From Eledone cirrhosa (taxonomy: Eukaryota), in the NCBI GenBank assembly GCA_964016885.1, contig OZ024742.1:279434001-279498000 (forward strand): a DNA stretch of 64,000 nt. The letters run 5' to 3'. Below, piece after piece: positions 8,333-64,000 of this stretch. The notes under the pieces were generated by a model, which saw only the letters and a program-made list of their open reading frames with translations, ran no database searches and was not told the origin of the DNA. The stretch's first letter is position 1, and each line of letters begins with the position of its first letter. The position numbers were made by a program, and so were the translations under genes.

Positions 8333-8396
<64 letters not shown>

Positions 8397-8402
<6 letters not shown>

Positions 8403-8739
8403 GTGAGGTTTTTTTTACAAAATGAAAAATAACCGAGGTGTCCTACACGAGTGAAAGTATAAAGAAAAAAAGATGAAATCGAAAATGCAACTGGAGTCTT
8501 ATTTTTTTTTTAAATATATATATTCATTAGGTTCCTTTACCGGTTTCGCAGTTCTTCTGCTTTTAAAAAGTAGAGTTGAGATGGAGGGTCTGTGGTTTTT
8601 CTGAAAACCCATAGAACCTCCATCTCAACTCTACTTTTGAAAAGCAGAAGAACTGCGAAACCGGTAAAGGAACCGAATGAATATATATATTTAAAAAAAA
8701 AATAAGACTCCAGTTGTATTTTCGATTTCATCTTTTTTT

Positions 8740-8746
<7 letters not shown>
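8397..8746. mobile_element. Fold-back palindrome in (TA)n carrying an HHR (family B)
   Basis: Arms 8458-8600 and 8604-8746 are near-perfect reverse complements. The left arm extends ~60 nt further, and (TA)n lies on both sides. Confidence 0.85.
8634..8669 (+). ncRNA. Hammerhead with U3-A8 covariant core
   Basis: ctt TTGAAAA gcag aagaa ctgc GAAAC CG GTA aag. Stems I and II are perfect, stem III is the palindrome ACCGGU, and the triplet is GUA. Confidence 0.75.
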
Positions 8747-26836: not shown

Positions 26837-26897
26837 CTCAATCTCGCTTTCTCTCGCTCTCACTCTCTATCTAGCTGACTATCTATATATCTATCTA

Positions 26898-27571
26898 ACA
26901 GACACGCGCGCCCGGGCAGGGATCCCTCAAAAAAGATTTGCCCTAGATGCGTGCGTCACGAAGAAACCGTTGCGCACGCATTGGTGCAATGTCCGGGCGT
27001 GGCTGATCTGTGGGGCTACGCCGAACGACTGCTGTCGCGGGTGGCGCCGAATAAATTGACCGCCGAGTCCGTGATGACAATCAAACCGCCTCCCCTCTTC
27101 ACAAAGGAAGCAAAGGCGGTTTTTCTGTGCGTAATAGCCATGTTGAAAGAGGTTGTTTGGTGGACACGATTGAAAGGTCTGAGGTCAGGCAACTTCCTCT
27201 CTGGCCATAGTCTGGTCTACTTCTTCCGATATCACTTCGGAAGAAGGATAAGAATGGAGAGAGAGGTGCTTGGCCACAGGCAGTTTTATGAAAGGTGGGT
27301 GATAGTGGCGAGAATGGCTCGTGTAAATGGGCCTTCTCTGTATACCATCCTGTAGGTAAAGAAGTAAAGGAGAAGGGAGCACCTTCTCCATGTGCTCCCC
27401 GGGCAAAGGATTGCACACTTTTTCGGGGGTGTGTGCAACCCCCATCACGTCCCCTCCCTTTTGAGGTTATTTTCGATTATTTTCATGTTACACCCTTTTT
27501 ACTCGATTATATGTAAACTCCCCCTTTGTATTTGTCCCTTCTTTTTATGCCTTTATGGTAAATAAAGAAAT
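26898..27571 (+). mobile_element. 5'-truncated L1/Tx1-clade LINE 3' end
   Basis: CPRC..HEETVAHALVQCPG zinc-finger region (ORF 26951-27355); 3' end ...ggtaaataaagaaat; 19-bp TSD ctatctatatatctatcta at 26879-26897 and 27572-27590. Confidence 0.85.
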
Positions 27572-29117: not shown

Positions 29118-30573
29118 AGTGGTAGAACATTGGAAGGTAATATCCGCAGTGGTAGAGCACTCACTCCATGGGACGAGTTAGATAGAAGTGTTTACACAGC
29201 AGTTTGTTCACCATACCGAGAACAATTGTTTCACCCTAGCGGATCCTCAGCTCGTAATGGGCATGGTTATACGGAACAGGAAGGTCAACCGTACGAACGC
29301 GCATGCGCAGAAACCCGTCACTTCACACACGCAATACTAAAATGCGTGCGAGAGGTGTAAGGGAGATAACTGCGAAAGTTTGAAACGTTTTTAGTTGATA
29401 AGAAAAAATATTGATGTTACAATAATTCATTCAATCCGGAGCTTTGTAGTTATGTAATAGGTGTTTCGAGGGGTGTGGACAACGTGTGAAAAATACATTT
29501 CTCGTGTTTAGGCAATCACTATTGCATAATCTCTTTAGAATATTTATTGGTTCGTCAATACACAGTCCACACGACGGATTTCCCCTTGCGTATGGTTTAG
29601 ACTTAGTGATTGGTTTCCATTGAATGGAGTAGTCTATAGTTGAGTCCTTGCGGGACCATACATACAATAAGAAAAGAAAGCGCAACAATAGATAAACTAT
29701 CTGGTTCTCTACTCCCTTCTCACTCAACCTTAAAACCAATGTAGGCCAAAAATGTCTAGCCCCCTTAGATAGACACTTTCCCATAGGTCATATATACCGC
29801 TTTCATCGTTAACCGACAAAGTTAAACGAGGATACTCCTGCGCTAAGAACATGAAGGCCCTCATCACCAGCAGCCCAAGGAGCAACACCCCACCAGGGTG
29901 TTCTTGCCGTAAGCCTGCAATGCAACAATCCAGCTGTAATTTATGAAGCTGTGGTCACTTCCAACCGACCAAACCAACCACGGGAGGTCAAATCCTATAT
30001 GGGCATGGCGGATGGCCGATTTAACGAACGTTTCCTGAACCATAAGTCGACCTTTAGGTACCCGGACAGACGTTCATCCACGAAACTCGCGAGCCACGTA
30101 TGGTACCTCAAGGACTCAACTATAGACTACTCCATTCAATGGAAAGCCATCACTAAGTCCAAGCCATACGCAAGGGGAAATCCGTCGTGTGGACTGTGTA
30201 TTGACGAACGAATAAATATTCTAAAGAGATTATGCAATAGTGATTGCCTAAACACGAGAAATGTATTTTTCACACTTTGTCCACACGTCTGGAAACACCT
30301 CTTACATAACTACAAATCTCCGGATTGAATGAATTATTGTAACAACATCAATATTTTTTCTTATCAACTAAAAACTTTTGGGACTTTCGCAGTTATCTCC
30401 CTTACACCTCTCGCACGCATTTTAGTATTGCGTGTGTGAAGTGACGGGTTTCTGCGCATGCGCGTTCGTACGGTTGTCCTTCCTGTTCCGTATAACCATG
30501 CCCATAACGAGCTGAGGATCTGCTAAGGTGAAACAATTGTTCTCGGTATGGTGAACTAACTGTTGTGTAACAA

Positions 30574-30576
<3 letters not shown>
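29118..30576 (+). mobile_element. 5'-truncated Naiad-like PLE with inverted pLTR arm
   Basis: 29651-30328 (+) encodes TIWFSTPFSLNLKTNVG..HFP and a GIY-YIG region IYEAVV..SYMG..F..RF..H..TKLASHVW.LK..W..CGLC..E..LN.R...CPH. 29190-29650 is the reverse complement of 30108-30570. Inserted in (TA)n. Confidence 0.9.
29217..29254 (-). ncRNA. Minimal hammerhead in pLTR (mirror copy at 30508-30545, +)
   Basis: cgag CTGAGGA tccgctagggt GAAAC AATT GTT ctcg: 4-bp stem I, palindromic stem III ACAAUUGU, GUU triplet, weak stem II. Confidence 0.75.
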
Positions 30577-30607
<31 letters not shown>

Positions 30608-35643: not shown

Positions 35644-38600
35644 GATTTCATTTATTAGCCACAAGGGCCGACATGTTGGGGACGATACAAAGACAGGGAC
35701 AGTGGGGGTTTACAATAAGGTCGAGTAAAAGTGCACACTGGCAAGACTAATTTAACAATGAAAATATAAAAATATAAAATAAACTATGCATAAATATAAC
35801 AAAATAAATTCCCCGATAGGGGGTGGAGGACCCTGGGGTGACTCGGGTACCCCACCAATCCTGAACCACCCTGCGCTTCTAGGGCACCCAGGGAGAGCAC
35901 CCCTCTCCTCAAGTTAGCTAGCCTATAGGCGCATGGTCAGAGTAGGCCCATTCACACGAGCCATTCTCGCCACATTCACCCACCTTTTAGCAAATGTACT
36001 GGGGGGGGGGGGGGCACTTTCCTCTCCACTCTCACCTTCCTTTCCAGGTGAAACTTGAAGAAGTTGATGAGGGATTGGCCGAAGAGAAAAGTGTCTGTCT
36101 GCAGTCCTTCTAACCTGGTCCACCATATAACCTCTTTCGCAACTGCCATCAGACAGGAAAATTTCCTGCTCTTCCTGACCCAAGGAAGGCGCTGGATCGA
36201 TCTTCACTATGGACTCGGCCGATAACCGGATTCGTTCCACACGCGACAGTAGCTGTTCGACATAACTCCACAAGTCAGTAATGCACGGACATTGGACAAG
36301 TGCGTGAAGATCGATTTCGTCGTTCTGTGCGCATCTTGGGCAGGTCCGTCTGACAGCACTTCCGTGCCTGTAGAGTTTATCCCGAACCGGCAGTGCCTCC
36401 CGGTAGCACTGCCAAGCGAGGGATTTCTGGAAATTGTCCATCGTCCCCGGCTCAAAAGTCCTCCGGTACACACTGGTCAGTTCGACTTCGTCGAGACCCA
36501 AAGATTCTCCGAGTGCGCCATCGCACTTGCCCACCACTAATCCTCTATAGAACTCGAGAGTGGAAGTTCCACTGATCGCATTCCCCGCTTCGTAGAGGGC
36601 AGTGAGTGCCTGGAAACATTCCAGGTGCCAGTCGCCCAGTCTCGGTCTCTTCTTGACCCAGGACTGCAGCTCAGTCAAAGAAATGAGCTGCGGAAAGGCC
36701 CGTCTGATAAACAGCGACCACACCTGTTCACCGTTGAGGCAGAATATCTGGAGATGTCGCAGCCTCACCGCATCTCTGCGCATCATTAGCCACGGCCCGC
36801 CCAGCCCTCCGCGTAGAGGGTGCTGGCAGCAGATGGACCGCCTCACCAACGGAACTTGTCCCCTCCACTAGAATTTGAAGAGGAGGCGTTCCAACTTGAC
36901 GAAGCGCGGATGGGGGCAAGGCACGACGGTCAGGTGGTAGTAGATGACAGACGCAATGTACGCATTCGCCACCTCCGCGCGATTTTTCAGTGATAGCTTC
37001 CTCCCAGCCCATTTTGGGTGAGACTGGATACTCTGCTCATTACCTCGTCCCAATTCTTTTCCACCTGGAGGTCTGGTCCGAACCAAACCCCGAGCAACTT
37101 TACCGGTCCGTCCAGCGCCCCACGACGCTGTTGGACGGCATGGTCTTGCCTCTCCAGGTTCCGAGCTGCAAGCCCACCGACTTTTCCGGGTTAAGTTTGG
37201 CTCCTGTCAACCTTTCATATTCCTTCAATAAGGTGCCGACCATCTCGATTTGTGAGGTGTTCGACACCATCACGGCAATCTGACAAGGTAAGGACTGAAA
37301 TCCGCTACTCTCTCTGACTCGCCACTCTCCCCGAACAACCGAGCAACGTTTTGGCGAAAGGCCTCAAGACCGAATTGTGGTTTTATTACCACGCTGCGCC
37401 TCCGCCACGCGGCTCCATCGAACAGCTTTGGTTCCCTCGTTTCTCAGCGCACGCGCCTTAGCTCTGACAATGCAACCTTCGTGTTTCGCATTGAAGAAAT
37501 GGTCTAATGCCATTCTTGCCGCTAGCGCGTCAGTTGCAATGCCACTATAAATAGCCTCGTCTAACTTATCTTACAGCTCCCCCTCCTTTCTATTTTTCTC
37601 TAACGCTAGTTATTTGCTGAACTCTATTGAAGTTACTCTAATCTCTCTTTTGAGAGCCCTCACCATCTGTTGTTGATGATCCCCCCTGTCAACTTTTGCT
37701 TATCTAAATTGTTGACTCGGTCCCTGTAAGCCTTACGGACCGGAAATGACATGTTCAGCTTCCAGGAACCCGGTCCTTACCTACGCGTTTTATCTAGGTC
37801 GACCGTACAGATCACACATTTGTGATCTGAATAGGCGACCGCTTTAAAAGGTGGGCAGCCCACACTATTTCTATCTATTTTCCTAATGAAGATCCTGTCT
37901 ATATACGATCTAGATGACCCCATTTGGTTGGTCCATGTCCATACTGGCACATTGGGGAAATCTAGTCGATACCGGCCAGACAGTTGGAACTGGCTGAGTA
38001 GGTTCTTGAGGCTTTTGCACCCCCCACTCCTATCGGCTACTCCCACACAATCCCAGCGTGCGTCTAAGATGCCATTCCAGTCCCCCGCTAACAGTAAAGG
38101 GCGAGACGTACACAGAAAGGTCTCCAGGCGCCTAAAGAAGTCCGGTCGTCCGGCCTCAGTAGAGGCGTAGACGGCCAGCAGTCTAGAGGCACCACCTTCG
38201 CTACTGCTCACATCCAAGACCACCAACTTACCATCCGGGGCCGGAAGATCGACCTTACCTCGAGATCCAGTCCTTTCCTAAACAGCACTGCCACCCCACC
38301 CTCCATTCCCGGCCTGCTAACAGATCCGAAGATCTGATAGTCATCGAAAACGGGGGCTATTGCGCACGTGTCGGAAATTCTGGTCTCGCTGACGGCAATC
38401 ACAACCATTTCCAGCGACCTGAGGTCGTTGAGCAGGCGACCCTGATTCCAGGGTGACCCCAGGTCGCGAACATTTAGACTTCTTACTATTAATATGGTCA
38501 TGTTGGTAAGCTAAGAGAGAGAGGGAAGGTTTACTTACCTCCCGGGATCTTGTGAAGGTCGGGTGGTTCGACCTCCATGGTTGGTGGGGTTTCTTTTGGG

Positions 38601-40640
38601 AACCCCTTTAAAAGTCTCGATGTGGGTTTCACATTCGGGGTTCCCACGTTTTGAGGAAAGTTCTCTCGAATTTCTTTGAAGGAATTGAGTGACATTCGGA
38701 CCAGAAGCAAATCTTCTGGTACGCAAAATGTGCTCCTTTCAAAAATCTCCCCCTCTGTCTGAATGTCCTCGCTTCGCGCTAAGAGGGCCATCAGTTTATC
38801 GTTGGCCCTTCTGACAAGCATGAAGTTTTTAACATTTTGTTGGTGTAGTTTTATTTGTTTTAGTTTTGGTGACTGTGGTGGTGAGGTTTTTTGTGGTGTT
38901 GTTTCGGGTATGTCTGTGTTTGTTGTAGGGGTGATGTCTGCAATTTCAGGTATTTGTGTATTTATTTGTACTTGTGTTTGTTTAGGTTGTTTTCGTTTCG
39001 GGGATTGTGGTGGTGGTGTCGATGTTGCTGTTGGTGCTGATGTTATTGGAAAAGTGTTTGCGTTAGTAGTGTCTGTATTTTTTGTTGTGTATGTTTTTGT
39101 GTTTTGTTAGGGCTTTTTTTTTGTGAGTTTTCTCTGTTTTGTTTTTTTGCACTTTTGGGTTTTCCTTCATCTTCGCTGCTGGAAGACAAATGGTCTGTGG
39201 CTGTCAGTGTCTCCGTGTCTGTGTGTGCGTTTATTGTTTTATCTATGTGTATAATTGGGGGGGGGGGTAGTGGGAGTGGGAGAGCTTTCCTCGTTTTCCC
39301 CTTGGATTAGTTTTGGTGTTGGTGGTGATCCGGCTGTTTTTGATGTTGGTGTCCGTGTCTTTGTTGGTGTTGCTTTTGGTGGTCGTGCAGCTTTCCGTGC
39401 TGACACTGGCGTTGGCAACAAAGGAGGTTTGCGACCTCCTGCATTTTTGCGCTGTGGTCAGAAGGCTTGCAGATGCGTTGCTTCCCCGCAGACAAAGCAG
39501 CGTGGCCTTCTTCCGTCAATGATTAGTTGGATTGTTGTCCCGTCCTGCAGGCAGGCAAAATCCGGGATGCTGTTCATGTCCTCCGGTTTCATTTGGAGAA
39601 GAATCTCCAAATCCATTCCGGACCAGTCCTCTCTCTTTGTCCTTTTGATATCCAGGAGGGTAGTGTCTGTCCCCTCCTCGATTACGCATCCCAGCAGCCA
39701 CCATATGTTCATTCCTGGTGGGATGCTTGGAATGCGGACCTTTACTGTCCTTTTATCCATGTAGAAGGGATGCATGATAATGCGTTCCGTTCTGCAAGGG
39801 GTCACCGAGTGCTTAATAGCAAGGGCCTCGGTTTATAAGAGTACCGAGATGGTACCGAACTGTTTGCCTCTTGCTTTATACTCTATGTTACTTCCGATGT
39901 ACTCCAAAGCAGCCTCGACCTCTGCTTGGCTGGCAAGTTCCGCTTTTCGCGTCTGCACCGAAATACATCGAAAGTACACCGTCCTCCTTTGCATGGCCGC
40001 TATTGCCTCGTCCGGGATGGTCAGGTTTGCCCAGGACTTCTCTCGTTTAATTAGCCTCCACGCTTTGGCCAACTGTTCGTCTTGATCGCTAATATCAATA
40101 TCAATATTCAATAAGCGCTTTGTTTTTGCTGCTGCTGTAACAAATGTGGTGTTTCTGATGCTCTTATTGTTGTTGTTGTCATTCTTGCTGTTGTTATTGG
40201 TGTTGTTGTTGTTGTTTTGTTTGTTGATGCTGTTGTCACCGCCAGCCGTGTTTACATTGAAGCTGTCGGTGTTATTGTCGTTATTGCTCTGAGTTGTTGT
40301 TGTTGTTGTGGTGGTGGTGGCGGTGGTGGTGGTGGTGATGTCGTTTTCAATGATACTGCTGCTATCACAGTGGGTTGTGATGGTAGCTTTTGAGTTTTGC
40401 CTTCACATTCAGTAGAGTGGATGACAGGCATGACTGTAGCCGTCGTAGTCGTGGTGAAATATACAGTGGCTGCCTTTAAACTTCTGACCTGAACGTTGGT
40501 TACCGTTTCAAGGTCGAACATTTCCATATTTATTTTTAGGTGGGGAAGCGATTTTTTTCGAATTTTTTTAAAAATAAATCTGAATATTCGGGCTTATCGC
40601 CCGAATATTGAGATGTATCCCTCTCTTTAAATTAAGATGT
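35644..40640 (-). mobile_element. Near-full-length L1/Tx1-clade LINE, decayed, RT core deleted
   Basis: ORF1 pieces span 40527-38531 and include the zinc knuckle RPRCFVCGEATHLQAF*. ORF2 starts at 38501 with AP endonuclease motifs (SLNVRDL, SETR, LLAGDWN, SRSYIDRIF, SDH). A junction at ~37280 skips the RT core. The C-terminus has CPRC..E..HALVQC, followed by a 3' UTR and (ATT)n tail at 35610-35643. The 5' boundary is approximate. Confidence 0.9.
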
Positions 40641-46272: not shown

Positions 46273-46279
<7 letters not shown>

Positions 46280-46698
46280 ATAGTGGTGTAACACACGAGC
46301 TGTGATATATTGGTAAAAGGAAAAGAAAATGCTGACAAATTGTTCCCAGTGAAAAATAGTTTAATTAGGAATAAGTAAAAATTAGTAATAAGTATTGGTT
46401 TGTATTCAGTTTTAGCTTAAATTTTTACCGGTTGCGCATTTCTAATGCTTTTCAAAAATAATTTTGAGATAGAGCGCCTGTGATGTTTGCTCTATCTCAA
46501 AATTAGATTAGAGCAAACATCACGGACGCTCTATCTCAACATTATTTTTGAAAAGCATTAGAAATGCGCAACCGGTAAAAACTTAAAACTAAAACTGAAT
46601 ACTAACCAATACTTATTACTAATTTTTACTTATTCCTAATTAAACTACTTTTCACTGGGAACAATTTGTCAGCATTTTCTTTTCCTCTTACCAATATA
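46273..46698. mobile_element. Fold-back palindrome in (TA)n, relative of family B
   Basis: Arms ~46304-46494 and 46509-46698. HHR-like ttt TTGAAAA gcatt aga aatgc GCAAC CG GTA aaa at 46545-46580 (A13C in both arms). Confidence 0.85.
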
Positions 46699-46845
46699 TC
46701 TATATATATCTATATATATGTAAAAGAATGACCACCTGACTAAGGAAACTTCTTGTTGAGTCAATCAACGCCGTACGTTAAAACTATCCTCAACACAGAG
46801 TACTCACAACCTCTAGTTTGAATACCTTAAACGATACCTTGTTAT

Positions 46846-48689: not shown

Positions 48690-49774
48690 TTTCAATTTAG
48701 TAGTCAATTACAATTATTAAGCTCTAAGAAAATACTTCTGAGCATTACATTACAATTTAAAAAAATATGATCAACACTAATGTGTTTTTTTTTTGCAAAA
48801 TGACAATAATTTTTTAGTCAGATAGAAATACCTTAATTCAAGTACATATAGTCCGCCCCTATCGATCTAGAAAATATTAAATATTAAATCTATACTTACA
48901 GACGTAAAATGGCAACTGCCTGGTGCCTAGACAAGTTTAAATTTCAAAATTCAAACCTATGCAGCAGATCGGTTGGAACTTCAAAACATAAACCTGTTTC
49001 ATAAAGGATGGTATACTAATGAAATAATTAATTAATTACGGAACAACTATTTATAAAATAATTATTAGTGAAGTAATCAATTTTCTGTGATTTTCAATAG
49101 GCACCCAGAAATTATAGTCACTTCTCCTAAGATAATAATCTTAAGACTGATCTGTCGCAAGCCTAATACATGTGCTTTTGCACACGACCTTCTCAGCATT
49201 CTGGCTCATATCCATGGCGCTAGAAATAACAGCCGTAAATATGGGATTATAAATTCAGCTCTACCGAAGGAGCAGATTTATTTCAATTTAGTAGTCAATT
49301 ACAATTATTAAGCTCTAAGAAAATACTTCTGAGCATTACATTGCAATTAAAAAAAATATGATCAGCCGTAAATATGGGATTATGAATTCAGCTCTACCAA
49401 AGTAGCAGTGACTATAATTTCTGGGTGCCTATTGAAAATCACAGAAAATTGATTACTTCACTAATAATTATTTTATAAATAGTTGTTCCGTAATTAATTA
49501 ATTATTTCATTAGTATACCATCCCTTGTGAAACAGGTTTATATTTTGAAGTTCCGACTGATCTACTGAAAAGGTTTGAATTTTGAAATTTAAAATTGTCT
49601 AGGCACCAGGTAGTTGCCATTTTACGTCTGTAAGTATAGATTTAATATTTAATATTTTCTAGATCGATACAGGCGGACTATATGTACTTGAATTAAGGTA
49701 TTTCTATCTGACTAAAAAATTATTGTCATTTTGGAAAAAAAACACATTAATGTTGATCATATTTTTTTAAATTG

Positions 49775-55904: not shown

Positions 55905-58693
55905 GACCTTGACAAAACCCATAGACATGGACCCAGTTACTGGAAGCTGAACTTGTCGTTACCGACATACAAAGCCTACAGTAGACGGATTAGCACTTTA
56001 GTTAAGCAGCACTTGATGGGGGCCATTGTCAACAACAGATGGTGGTACTCTCTCAAGAGGGCAGTTAGATTAGACTCGATAGGTTTTAGTAAATAATTAG
56101 AGTTAGATAGAAATAAGACCGAAAGGGAACTGGTAGATAAAGTAGAAGAGGCACTTAGGAGTGGCAACGTAGCCAGCGTGCTAGCGACGAGAATGGCCTT
56201 GGACCAGTTCTTCGACGCAAAGCATGAAGGTTGCGTTGTCAGAAGCAAAATACATGCTCTGGGAAACGAGCGAGCCAAAGCTGTTAGCTGGGCCCGAGTG
56301 ACGGAGGCGAAAAGTGGCAACAAGTCCATGGACGCGTGATACGTGAGCCGAAGCAAATGTGCGCGGCCTTTCAGCGGCACTTTGCTCAACAGTTCGGGCA
56401 GGGCGGCCCAACTGGAGAGGCTATGGATTTCGGTTCATACCTCGACGGCCTACCGCGACTCTCGGACAGCGAGGCGAAGTTCTGAGAAAACCCGATTTCG
56501 GCCGCTGAGATAGGGGACGCGCTGATCCAATGCGGCAAACGCAAATCTCCAGGTCTCGACGGTCTACCCTACGAATTTTACTTAGCAGTGCCGGACTTGT
56601 CCTTCGGTCTCCTGAAAGCGGTCTACTGCAACTGGCAGCAGAACAGTAGAATTCCCAGTTCTGTGACCAAGGGCGTAATCACGTTAGTCAGGAAGGACGA
56701 GAACAAGGGGGATGACATAGGCAACTTCCGGCCCATAACTCTGCTCAACACAGAGTTACAGATTTTGGCCAAGGTGTTGGCAAAAAGGCTGGCGCTTGTC
56801 ATGGAAAACCTGGTGGGAGAAATGCAGACATGCGCAATCCCGACCAGGTCCATACACGACAACCTCCACCACATGCGATACATCATAGAGAGGGTAGCGT
56901 GTAAACCCGGCTTCGGTGGGGCCCTGATCAACTTGGATCAGTCTAAGGCTTTCGATAGGGTTGACCATCGTTACCTGGATGCGGTGCTCGAGGCGGCAGG
57001 CTTCGGTCTCGTGTTCAGGGGCTGAATTGCTGCAATGCACAACAGCAACAACTGCTCAAGTGTCAAGGTGAACGGCTACTTATCAGAGCCGTTCCATATC
57101 ACGCGATCCATCCGACAGGGATGCGCTCTCACCTCCCTTCTGTACGTACTGACTCTCGAGCCACTACTGTGGAAGTTGGAGCTATTGCAGGGCATCCCTT
57201 TGGAACCGGGACTGCGAAAAGCGGCGTCGGCCTACGCCTACGACGTCATAGTAATGGTGTCGAGCACCTCGTAAATCGGGGAGATCGAGACCTTACTGGA
57301 GGAATACGAAAGTTTCACAGGAGCGAAGCTGAACCAAGACAAATCCGTCGGTTTGCAACTCGGAACGTGGAGAGACAAACCAATGCCTTCCGATGACGTC
57401 GTTGGACGCTGGACGGAAGGCCCGGTAAAGCTGCTCGGGGACTGGTTTGGTCCCGACCTCCAGGTGGAGAAGAACTGAAACGAGGTGACGGCCAAGGTAT
57501 TTGCGCTCACCCAGAAGTGGGCCGAGTGCAAACTATCCTTGAAAAGTCGAGCGGAGGTGGCGAACACTTATATAGCGTCCGTCATCGACTACCGCTTGAC
57601 CGTTGGGCCTTGTCAAGCCAAAACGCTCACCAAAATGTAGCGCGCACTCTTCCAATTCCTTTGGAAGAAACGGGCTCCCTTGGTGAGAAGATCCATCTGC
57701 TGCCAACACCCTTCAAACGGAGGGCTGGGGTCGCCGTGGCTGACGATGCGCAAACACGCGCTCAGGCTGCGGCGCCTCCACGTATTCCTCTTCAGACAAC
57801 CGGTGTGGGCCCCGTTCGTGAGGCGAGCCTTCCCACGACTCGTCTCGCTGACCGAGCTGCAGATCTGGGTCAAGCAAAGACCGAGGAAAGTGGGAGACTG
57901 GCATATCGAATGTGCTCAGGCGCTCACAGTCCTCTGGCAAACGGACCCGGCGATCAGTGGAGACTCCACTTCGACATTCTATAGAGGGTTGGTCCGCAGC
58001 AAGTGCGACGACACGCTCGGAGAAACTCTTGGCGTAGAGTAGGACGAACTGGCCAGCCTGTTGGGTAGGACCATCCGCCCGGTACCGATGGACAACTTCC
58101 AAAAGTCCCTGGCCTGGCAGTGCTACCGAGGAGCTCTACCAGTTCGAGACAAGCTCTACAGAGATGGGCGCCCGGGTAGGGACCCTTCGAAAAAGATCTG
58201 TCCGAGGTGCGTGTAATACGAATAAATCGTCGGGCACGCATTCATACACGGCCCGGGCGTTACTGACCTCTGGGGCTATGTAGAACGACTATTGTCGCGG
58301 GTGAGACCAATCCAGTTGACCACCGAATCCATTGTCATGATTAAACCGCCACCCTCCTGCAAAAAAGAGGTACTGTATCCCAGCAAATTTTATAAAAGGT
58401 GGGTAAATGTGGCAAAGATGGCCCGAGTGGTTGGGCCTTCTCTCTATATAAGCATGTAGGTTGAGGAAAAAGAGGAAGAGAGGAAGGGAGTACTCACTCT
58501 TGGTGCTCTTGGAGATGATGGTTGTATATTTTTTTTCGGCGTGTGTACAACCCATGTGTAACACCTCCCCCCTATTGGGGATTTCAATTGTTATTTGTTG
58601 TTTTATTAAAAGTTTATTTTCATAGACCCGTATGTAAACTCCCCATTTTTATTTGTCCCATTCTTTTGTGCCCTTGTGGCTAATAAAGAAATT
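55905..58693 (+). mobile_element. 5'-truncated L1/Tx1-clade LINE (ORF2 pseudogene with RT)
   Basis: GPSYWKLN, KSPGLDGLPYEFY, NFRPITLLNTELQILAKVLA, LDQSKAFDRVDH, SIRQGCALTSLLY, AYAYDV and CPRC, with many stops. 18-bp TSD tatctatatatatataaa at 55887-55904 and 58694-58711. Confidence 0.9.
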
Positions 58694-60559: not shown

Positions 60560-62785
60560 CTATATATAGGGCTTAAAGTTTTGGAAGGAATGTCTGAGGC
60601 GGTGCTGGCAAGTTGCAAACACCTCAGATTTTTTGTTAAGTAGGTTACGGTTGGAGAAGATGATATTGTGTGTCTCTAGTATACAGAGGTTACAGAATTT
60701 ATTAGGTGGTTTGTACGAGGTCGCGCTGCCTATCACTTCCCATTTGAGTGTGTATGGTTTATTTTTAGATTTTAGATAGTGTATGTAGCTAGAAAGTGAG
60801 GTGGAGTTGGCTAGGCTGTGCTTTTTGAATGAGTGGATGTGCGAGTTATATCTGATTTTGAAGCAGTTAGAAGTGGAGCCTACATAGGTTTCTGAAGAGT
60901 TATTAGTCGTGACTGTGCATGAGTATATGACATCCTTGGTTAGGCATTTTTTATCTAAAGGGCAGGTTCTATTAGCTCTACAGTTACAATTATTCTGTGC
61001 GTTAGTCCGCTGGTTATAATGCAATGCGGAAGTCTGTGTGGTGGATATAGGATTTTGGGTGTTCGGGTTGACAACCCTGGTGTTATTACTTATACTAGTG
61101 TTATTTCTATTGTTACTGCCGTTGCTATTGTTGCTTGCTACAGTGGTATTTAGAGGGTTTGCATCCCGTTGTGATTTTGTTTGTTGGAAGTAAGAACTAA
61201 TTTTACTATTATTGCTGCTAGCTATGTGGTATGCTAAGTTAGGCGTCGTAGAGTATGAGATTTTAATGGTGTTTTTGTTTAAGAGGTTGTGGTACTTGTG
61301 TCCTAGAGGGAAGTTTTTATCTAGTAGTGAGAAGAAAGCCCTAGGTATGTTGGTGGAGACATTTAGGTTGAAAGGAGGGTTGAAAAATGTATTATTTCTT
61401 CTTCTATTTTTGCTTTTAGTGTTTGGTGTGTTGCTTCCTCCTAAGGCCTCACAGTAGTTTCCATGGTAATGGTTACTTCCGGTGGCACCCTCCGCTTTGG
61501 TGTACTTGTGGTTGCTATTCCTATTATTAGATTTCCTCATGGACATGTTGTGCGAGATGATGTTGTAGCTATGTGTTTTCTTAGGTAGGAACTCAATTTC
61601 TATATTATGGCCGGAGCTAGCTAATGCTTGATTGTAATATTGTGAGTTTTTGCTAAATATGTTTGCGTCATAGGACAGACTAGAGATTCTATTGGACACC
61701 CCCTTAGAGATAGAGTTTAATATTGATCTAGGGTGATTAGACTTGGTATCTACGTAAATAATTTCTCATTAGGCTTATGGAAAGGTGTATATATTTTTGA
61801 GTCTAGGTATAGTGTGGCGTCTAGGAAGTTAACATTTTTAGCGTTTTTGTCCATGGTGATACTAAGGTTAAAGTTTTTGAATGTCTTATGCAGTTGTTTT
61901 CTAGTTCTTTCTATATTAAATTTTTTATATTCTATGAGTAGAAGTGCATCATCGCGGTACAAACCACCGTTGAGGTAAGGGAGGTCTTTATGGATTTCAT
62001 TGAGGAGGTATAGGCCGACCAAATCAGTGACCTGCGCCGAGTCACTAGATCCCATGGTTATGTCGAAGTTGTTGTGCGTATCCTTGCGTGTCCATAGTTG
62101 GTCCTCGAAGGTGATTATGGTTTTACGGGCCGCAAGGATGACTTCAACCTGGGCTCTAGTCAGGTCGCTATTGGTCATGGCCATGATAAGTGCCTTATTT
62201 AATAGGATAGGGGAAATAGAGGTGTAGTATGAATTGATATCAAATTGAATAAATTTTTTGTTCTTATTATTCTTGATATCCTTGAACCATTCAATTACTT
62301 CACCTGTATTTCCCCATTGTTTAAGGTGTATCTTATGTTTAATTTGTGGGATGATTTTATCCAAAATCTTCTTGCTGATAATACCAATGTCGGACTTGGA
62401 AGGGCAGATAAGTCTTATCGTGGGGTTGCTGATGAAGTTCTCCTTATGGTCCTTCAGAGAGAATCTAGGGGGGTTCGGAGTGAAAGGTTGTGTATGCCTT
62501 TGTAGTCCTAGTTTAGACACTATATTATAACCCTCTACATTAATATCTTCTAAGTTTTTCAAGGTGGTTTTTTTGTAGCTTTTATGTAGTTCATTATATA
62601 TAAACTTTCTATAAGTAATATAATCTAGGCTGTATATGTTATTAGTTTTATCTGCGTGTACAATAATTTTATTACTAGTTTTGAATCCACTAATAGAAGT
62701 GTTAAGTTTGTTTAAGAAGGTGTTGCTTCTAATATGGTGCTTATTGTATTTAATGTTCTTAACTAGTTTAACTAGGTCATTTTCA
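60560..62785 (-). CDS. PLE RT-GIY-YIG polyprotein lacking its N-terminus, split by one 1-bp frameshift at ~61763
   Basis: ORFs 61750-62835 and 60560-61699 join as KPNEK-IIYVDTKSNHPRSILNSISKGVSNRIS if one A is restored in the gagaaa(a)tt run. Confidence 0.85.
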
Positions 62786-62849
62786 TAAATAGTATAACTA
62801 ATACTATTAACTGCTCCATATCGTTGAGCTGACATATAATATTGCCAAT

Positions 62850-64000
62850 ATGCTAATCAAAGACCAACTCCCCATGTCAACCAAGAACATACCAATACCA
62901 TCCAGGAATACATATGAGAAATTGCTGATCAACAGTGTAAATTCATTTATCAATAGAGTGAGATGGAGGACATTCCATTATGATAGAAACAAATCTAACA
63001 ACTTGAATAATACTAACAATTTTGACTCCTTCGGCTTTAAAACCTTTAAAAGCCCCCCTCATAACACTCTACTTAACTCCTTTGAAAATGACCTAGTTAA
63101 ACTAGTTAAGAACATTAAATACAATAAGCACCATATTAGAAGCAACACCTTCTTAAACAAACTTAACACTTCTATTAGTGGATTCAAAACTAGTAATAAA
63201 ATTATTGTACACGCAGATAAAACTAATAACATATACAGCCTAGATTATATTACTTATAGAAAGTTTATATATAATGAACTACATAAAAGCTACAAAAAAA
63301 CCACCTTGAAAAACTTAGAAGATATTAATGTAGAGGGTTATAATATAGTGTCTAAACTAGGACTACAAAGGCATACACAACCTTTCACTCCGAACCCCCC
63401 TAGATTCTCTCTGAAGGACCATAAGGAGAACTTCATCAGCAACCCCACGATAAGACTTATCTGCCCTTCCAAGTCCGACATTGGTATTATCAGCAAGAAG
63501 ATTTTGGATAAAATCATCCCACAAATTAAACATAAGATACACCTTAAACAATGGGGAAATACAGGTGAAGTAATTGAATGGTTCAAGGATATCAAGAATA
63601 ATAAGAACAAAAAATTTATTCAATTTGATATCAATTCATACTACACCTCTATTTCCCCTATCCTATTAAATAAGGCACTTATCATGGCCATGACCAATAG
63701 CGACCTGACTAGAGCCCAGGTTGAAGTCATCCTTGCGGCCCGTAAAACCATAATCACCTTCGAGGACCAACTATGGACACGCAAGGATACGCACAACAAC
63801 TTCGACATAACCATGGGATCTAGTGACTCGGCGCAGGTCACTGATTTGGTCGGCCTATACCTCCTCAATGAAATCCATAAAGACCTCCCTTACCTCAACG
63901 GTGGTTTGTACCGCGATGATGCACTTCTACTCATAGAATATAAAAAATTTAATATAGAAAGAACTAGAAAACAACTGCATAAGACATTCAAAAACTTTAA
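62850..64000 (+). CDS. PLE polyprotein N-terminus and RT, open to the window edge (not in the ORF track)
   Basis: ATG at 62850: MLIKDQLPMSTKNIPIPSRNTYEKLLINSVNSFINRVRWRTFHY...FGFKTFKSPP..FENDLVKLVKNIK...ADKT...GLYRDD. No stop seen up to 64000. Confidence 0.9.
   Translation, partial: MLIKDQLPMSTKNIPIPSRNTYEKLLINSVNSFINRVRWRTFHYDRNKSNNLNNTNNFDSFGFKTFKSPPHNTLLNSFENDLVKLVKNIKYNKHHIRSNTFLNKLNTSISGFKTSNKIIVHADKTNNIYSLDYITYRKFIYNELHKSYKKTTLKNLEDINVEGYNIVSKLGLQRHTQPFTPNPPRFSLKDHKENFISNPTIRLICPSKSDIGIISKKILDKIIPQIKHKIHLKQWGNTGEVIEWFKDIKNNKNKKFIQFDINSYYTSISPILLNKALIMAMTNSDLTRAQVEVILAARKTIITFEDQLWTRKDTHNNFDITMGSSDSAQVTDLVGLYLLNEIHKDLPYLNGGLYRDDALLLIEYKKFNIERTRKQLHKTFKNF

Follow-up and report, generated by a model that had tools for sequence, protein, structure and literature searches.

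U3-A8 hammerhead motifs in two young sister families of Penelope-like elements of Eledone cirrhosa, one of them with C at core position 13

The closest described counterparts of the motifs reported here are the hammerheads in the pseudo-LTRs (pLTRs) of Penelope elements in Schistosoma mansoni, for which Cervera and De la Peña (2014; PMC4209133) reported, following homology searches with a Penelope element, about 1,300 motifs in which core positions 3 and 8 are U and A. Their Fig. S3 lists the core UUGAAAA for S. mansoni family 4, and GAAA is kept in all 56 of its motifs (in one of them as AGAAA). Natural U3-A8 pairs were also reported by Perreault et al. (2011; PMC3088659), who cite the in vitro activity of the variant, so that the novelty of U3-A8 implied by a first-pass annotation of the present locus does not stand. 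A pairwise scan of another hammerhead found rescue only for the G3-C8 swap (PMC9901934), which by analogy would speak against full activity of U3-A8. Changes at A13 are given a cost of 10-100-fold (PMC4075628, citing Nelson and Uhlenbeck), milder than for changes at C3, G5, G8, G12 and A14. In a Penelope element of Anolis the hammerhead requires the element's protein, and core mutants insert in vitro (PMC11167929). Canonical EN+ elements are described as having a single ORF, with a frameshifted ORF1 also mentioned, its clade unstated (PMC8557442).

In this study, we analyse a window of 64,000 nt (the whole stretch of E. cirrhosa DNA considered) together with a search of the 3.0-Gb genome. It is near certain, as far as element identity is concerned, that the window motifs are the hammerheads of pLTRs of two young Penelope-like sister families, apparently of Neptune type, here called A and B. 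The best reading of the sequence comparisons, taken as a whole, is probably that family A carries a slow, dimeric, perhaps protein-assisted U3-A8 ribozyme, that its counterpart in family B is weakened by A13C and that the window copies are inert passengers. U3-A8 alone adds little, being a further, though large, case of a published covariation; what deserves attention is that a young autonomous family has C13 fixed in its core.

Two inverted insertions and their parent elements

The motif at 8634..8669 (+ strand) is a minimal type I hammerhead motif of family A, with a 3-bp stem I, the core UUGAAAA, a 4-bp stem II, GAAA and the palindromic stem III ACCGGU; U3 lies at 8637 and A8 at 8642, and cleavage is predicted after A17 (8666). 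The family-B motif at 46545..46580 (+ strand) likewise has a U3-A8 core (U3 at 46548) and ACCGGU as stem III, with a stem II of 5 bp and a stem I made up of three U-A pairs; it reads GCAA where GAAA is usual, which puts C13 at 46569. The first-pass annotation had read the letters of both motifs exactly. The compensatory stem changes that it saw between them are real but few, namely one pair of stem II, which is G-C in the first copy and U-A in the second, and the outermost pair of stem I, C-G and U-A respectively. Stem I is only 3 bp long in both copies, and the second copy is not the equally intact core that it was taken for, since it carries A13C.

Each motif lies within an arm of an extended inverted repeat embedded in (TA)n (8458-8601/8603-8746 and about 46273-46699), and each insertion consists of two short pLTR copies back to back, with a tail on the left arm. 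In the first pair, the right arm (8603..8746, + strand; offsets -34 to +108 from U3) is a short family-A pLTR copy that starts at the common 5' position, stops at the shorter of the two 3' ends and is followed by (TA)n, and the inverted left arm (8390..8602, - strand; offsets -35 to +176) has the long 3' end with the tail, again followed by (TA)n; the hammerhead of this left arm, at 8535-8570, has G5 changed to U at 8565. The second pair is built from a short family-B pLTR copy on the right (46501..46699, + strand; offsets -47 to about +160) and an inverted copy with the tail on the left (46273..46497, - strand; offsets -43 to about +192), whose motif is intact with U3 at 46455 and has the same C13, so that GCAA is found in both arms. 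Folding predicts that transcripts across either locus form an end-to-end hairpin burying the motif, and the two insertions are, on this model, likely to be inert passengers. Among the best 150 of 225 matches, an Rfam e-value scan of the window gave microRNA-like hairpins only and no hammerhead.

A third case put forward in the first-pass annotation, at 49428-49542, is rejected as a hammerhead: its half-cores lie ~90 nt apart, and neither the closing stem II nor stem I forms. It falls in an inverted pair (48783..49746) of an unrelated, non-coding tandem-repeat unit of ~590 bp outside families A and B, which occurs as tandem arrays and inverted pairs in (TA)n (also at L142-L161). The unit resembles PLE-mobilised repeats, yet the hammerhead descriptor matched nothing in this repeat family, and a looser descriptor gave just two weak, unrelated matches.

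The parent elements were sought in the genome at large. Upstream of one motif copy lies a frame with reverse transcriptase (RT) and GIY-YIG. A search with the family-A endonuclease gave 150 scored matches, and among the best 30 loci, which were checked for the motif, 19 have it on the same strand <=1.5 kb downstream and 0 on the opposite strand; at loci picked by the family-B endonuclease the motif is present in 25 of 30. Full-length elements of both families have the layout pLTR(motif)-ORF1-ORF2(RT, CxxCxxC linker, GIY-YIG)-pLTR(motif), in which about 4.7-4.8 kb separate the two motifs (about 4.7 kb in the family-A loci L163, L165 and L171), and in the pLTRs of intact elements the position of the motif is fixed, on the sense strand. 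ORF1 and ORF2 measure 409 and 775 aa in family A (15 stretches selected for long open frames) and 455 and 784 aa in family B (18 fetched stretches, with the same flanking motifs), with 56% identity between the families in ORF2. Pfam finds RVT_1 and GIY-YIG in ORF2 of both, the family-A RVT_1 slightly below the curated cut-off. Since unbroken ORF2 copies differ by only 0.41% (15 copies of A) and 0.61% (17 copies of B), both families are young.

The features of EN+ Penelope-like elements are all present, that is, RT with a C-terminal GIY-YIG, pLTRs, tandem and inverted insertions and a tail. In both families ORF2 has a C-x4-C-x2-C linker ahead of GIY-YIG, and insertions have TA flanks; the Neptune label appears to fit, on the strength of the linker motif and TA targeting rather than of a tree with reference families. 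Nematis elements have the same linker motif (PMC8557442). Near-exact matches to family B in low-depth contigs of two further organisms, B and C, are possibly carry-over DNA and were not counted as occurrences in other species.

All nine elements checked for the arrangement of their frames (L171, L239, L255, L256, L257, L261, L263, L266 and L335) have an overlap of 40-91 nt between ORF1 and an RT frame in -1 (L171:1871-1961 and L239:7097-7166, for example), and the heptamer U UUU UUA or U UUU UUG in the ORF1 frame. These sequences make a programmed -1 frameshift likely in an endonuclease-bearing Penelope lineage, and this conserved shift between ORF1 and the RT frame may merit separate study. 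ORF1 itself gave no match in Pfam; its conservation amounts to 23-44% identity. A weak search of 2,175 candidates gave no fusion of ORF1 to longer proteins, and no strong structure was predicted downstream of the heptamer in A or B.

Other elements were met on the way. Two PLE frames in the window (29855-30328 and 60560-62856) were considered as parents of A or B and rejected, as they belong to other families. The first, endonuclease-like, lies in a fragment of a different PLE in inverted arrangement (29179-30583), which has a canonical CUGAGGA minimal hammerhead about 30512 (+ strand) and an inverted copy near 29250. The second lies in a PLE-like element with RT and endonuclease in two open frames (60560-64000, - strand) and a perfect 918-nt inverted repeat (61868-62785/63083-64000); its frames gave no Pfam match at E 0.001, and its pLTR did not turn up downstream. 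The window also contains broken fragments of LINE type (RVT_1, Exo_endo_phos, zf-RVT) at 26879-27355, 35923-39832 and 56486-58042. Outside it, a ~466-bp unit repeated in long tandem arrays (L197-L206; G000:C1 near 5.74 Mb) carries a canonical CUGAUGA hammerhead whose stem I has 7 bp; these arrays resemble non-LTR retrozymes. Penelope RT-endonuclease contigs with hammerheads in prokaryote genome bins (L335-L341) are likely host DNA carried into the bins.

The pair between positions 3 and 8

Genome matches to the motif pattern with this stem III number 26,894 for U3-A8 (control 0) and 2 for C3-G8. Loci picked by the family-A endonuclease, which were chosen independently of the motif (a few of them overlap), have U3 in 53 of 54 matches and A8 in 54 of 54; the rest of the family-A core agrees with the canonical one in 52-54 of the 54 matches per column, so that the whole core is canonical once Watson-Crick swaps at 3-8 are allowed. 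U3-A8 is thus the state of the family, and the CUGAAGA consensus that the first-pass annotation had named as the alternative is not what the genome holds. That the motifs arose by chance, whether as double mutants of a CUGAAGA family or as a random match favoured by an AT-rich context and short stems, is accordingly so improbable that we regard it as refuted by the genome counts and by shuffling: the pattern of core plus stem III matches 3 times in the window, whereas 200 mononucleotide shuffles average 0.005 matches, and in the pLTRs of intact elements its site is fixed. About 31,000 U3-A8 pattern matches in this genome are missed by CUGANGA searches, as had been foreseen.

The other families of the genome, counted for motifs in which position 7 is not A, give 12,881 matches for C3-G8 (control 22), 4,114 for U3-A8 (61), 159 for C3-A8 (31) and 117 for U3-G8 (29). 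Many of the mismatched-pair matches listed are single-change copies of paired families, and the copy counts reflect a handful of master elements rather than independent events. Covariation was tested by these counts and by a tree, for which 87 related loci were taken from other assemblies; 35 were labelled by descriptor and by eye, and the 52 without a clear motif were left out. Matches that lacked GAAA, lay on the opposite strand or fell inside RT coding sequence were excluded too; one C3-C8 and one U3-G8 within coding sequence were among these. The resulting 37 elements (the 35 plus A and B) comprise 28 with C3-G8, 7 with U3-A8, 1 with G3-C8 and 1 with A3-U8, and U3-A8 needs 6 changes on the tree, forced by well-supported branches. 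The closest relatives (L256, L257, L261 and L263) have C3-G8 at the same place together with the same ACCGGU stem III; A and B therefore share one switch to U3-A8. Because families and relatives swap C3-G8 and U3-A8 with almost no mismatched pairs, the pair is selected rather than a product of decay, which bears out the view taken of it in the first-pass annotation.

Two further sets of U3-A8 motifs were observed. One is a family with the core UUGAGAA and a stem III containing GUAC (L177, L185-L196), downstream of endonucleases related to that of the 60.6-kb element of the window, so that a second PLE lineage of this genome has U3-A8 as well. The other consists of tandem arrays of a 316-bp unit with the core UUGAUAA (L179-L184), in which stem I is unpaired next to the cut site and a 5-nt bulge may intervene.

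Between A and B, 30 of 37 motif positions (81%) are shared, as against 44 of 133 four-fold sites of ORF2, which is near saturation (27% expected by chance), and this suggests that selection acts on the motif. The 59 nt upstream of the motif are also conserved (37/59), so part of the conservation may reflect promoter or protein-binding needs and not catalysis. One could go further and suppose that neither family cuts, the fold being a non-catalytic signal (for RT binding, for dimerisation or in a promoter-proximal role) and U3-A8 the relic of an active ancestor. We hold this to be quite unlikely: A and B agree in U4, G5, A6, A9, G12, A14, A15.1, U16.1 and H17 although their synonymous sites are saturated, and among the relatives the stems and the palindrome of stem III vary, with the core and the 3-8 pair retained, as selection on a catalytic fold predicts. 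The supposition does draw on the 3-bp stem I, on a stem I/loop II contact that is not visible, on the toleration of C13 in B and on the conserved promoter sequence, as well as on Naiad elements, which thrive without hammerheads, and on hammerhead mutants that insert normally in vitro (PMC11167929). The reading that we prefer remains that of a slow ribozyme in family A.

As the relatives use other palindromes, ACCGGU was dropped as a transcription-factor site, for which we had assumed a Grainyhead-type factor as a candidate.

C13, the fold and the proposed mechanism

GCAA, with C13, is found in 11,783 of the 26,894 genome matches. Near family-B frames position 13 is C in 66 of 67 cases, U in 1 and A in 0, so that the core of family B departs from the canonical one here; in independent DNA runs no letter but C exceeds 10% at this position, and C13 is present in the pLTRs of intact young full-length copies. 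Among the relatives, C13 is fixed in none and occurs only in one of the two pLTR copies of L257. A limited literature search yielded no report of A13C, which could be in print, most likely in the work of Lünse 2017 on Penelope hammerhead variants or in the supplements to it, and no passage on 'A13' in PMC3884650 or PMC2553840. Judged from sequence, the fixed change at a normally invariant core letter makes it likely that family B cuts poorly, yet the family has reached about 12,000 copies.

In both families stem II has 4-5 bp and is closed by G10.1-C11.1, and the palindromic stem III is of the kind suited to dimers: the ACCGGU self-duplex is given -8.3 kcal/mol, and the cofold contains a 6-bp intermolecular helix. 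Stem I has 3-4 bp, and in the monomer model its pairing probability is 0.67 in a 4-bp subfamily of A, 0.00 in the family-A window copy and 0.00-0.01 across the window copies and B. Family B, with its three U-A pairs (probability 0.01), has the weakest stem I together with a competing fold.

A13 contacts base 17, the cleavage-site base, and C offers a similar amino/imino edge. Were C13 with A17 to replace the usual A13 contact, family B would cut about as well as A. Family B is young and intact, its homogeneity is no lower than that of A, it keeps all other core positions and has A17 in common with A, and the position affected is among the milder ones (PMC4075628). Even so we consider the idea unlikely, given that GAAA is kept throughout Fig. 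S3 (PMC4209133), that no related element has fixed C13 and that B combines the weakest stem I with a competing fold; moreover, family A pairs A17 with A13, and A17 therefore does not require C13. Doubtful, too, is the more specific proposal that family B represents a new working core, U3-A8 with C13 facing A17, which some 12,000 copies have kept and which the protein of the element activates. If it were true, B and its A13 sister family would be a natural pair for asking what purpose the hammerhead serves in Penelope. What hammerheads do for Penelope-like elements can be put to the test with young, intact sisters of which one has GAAA and the other a fixed GCAA. Failure of B to cut would mean that a very successful element can do without cleavage in vivo, which would extend the in vitro result; cutting by B would mean that the core tolerates a change thought costly.

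The ends of genomic copies bear on how the elements spread. Among 137 distinct family-A matches, 3' ends fall at +176 (63) and +108 (48) from U3, and 50 5' ends lie at -50 to -31; among 149 family-B matches, the 3' ends fall at +164 (50) and +197 (47), with 30 5' ends at -50 to -31. The family-A ends were reproduced in an independent DNA run. Upstream of the motif, the pLTR (L171:400-520; L239:5480-5590) has CCAAT and, about 29 nt before the common 5' end, TATAAAA or CATAAAA; TTTCGCGCCA, which we take to be an E2F-like site, lies on the opposite strand upstream of the motif in family A and in some B copies. As the 5' ends of short copies pile up ~29 nt after TATAAAA, we infer a TATA promoter in the pLTR, which would start the RNA about 43 nt before U3.

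With weakened cleavage in B and a slow ribozyme in A, the following course may be proposed. RT would prime at a (TA)n nick and, by analogy with the Anolis element (PMC11167929), start inside the RNA at either of two sites, which would give the two 3' ends seen in each family (+108/+176 in A, +164/+197 in B). Short copies of the window type, in an inverted pair with a tail on one arm, would result when priming takes place in the first pLTR. Two motifs may pair through the ACCGGU palindrome, perhaps with help from the element's protein, and would then be cut after GUA. The copies span the cut site, and their RNA template was therefore uncut; cutting would not be required for each insertion, which would let family B keep C13. 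No pile-up of 5' ends at the cut site was seen among the sampled genomic copies, a sample enriched for motif-bearing copies, nor was a 5' end found there among the best 15 of 174 loose ends in the DNA run, although the search that reproduced the family-A ends skipped an AT-rich repeat beside the cut site and has no bearing on 5' ends at that site.

Comparison with known systems

As elements, A and B agree with the Neptune clade as described by Craig et al. (2021; PMC8557442) in RT, a CX2-5CxxC linker, a C-terminal GIY-YIG and (TA)n targets, and also in insertions that are tandem or inverted and bear a tail on one side. They differ from that description in an upstream ORF1 that overlaps the RT frame in -1 with a U UUU UUA heptamer, and in a family-A tail of 68 nt instead of 30-40.

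With Poseidon PAc of Anolis carolinensis (Frangieh et al. 2024; PMC11167929) they share two RT starts matching two genomic 3' ends and copies made from uncut RNA. PAc has C3-G8 and a motif that overlaps the start codon, whereas the motif of A and B lies about 170-200 nt upstream of ORF1.

As ribozyme motifs, those of A and B are like the min-HHRs of S. mansoni Cercyon and other metazoan elements (PMC4209133) in type I topology, position in the pLTR, short stem I, G10.1-C11.1, a palindromic stem III for dimers, U3-A8 and the core UUGAAAA, and the same paper describes opposite-strand pairs of motifs separated by 100-700 bp. The motifs of A and B are distinguished by the passage from A9 to G10.1 without an extra base and by the cut site GUA, and, like the Drosophila and shrimp types, they have a palindromic insert of 2 nt. 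With the motifs of Perreault et al. (2011; PMC3088659) they share U3-A8 covariation in nature; the text of that paper names A6C, A6a, U13a and U15.1-A16.1, not A13C. Family B is set apart from the min-HHRs by C13, which is absent from the 56 motifs of Fig. S3 (PMC4209133).
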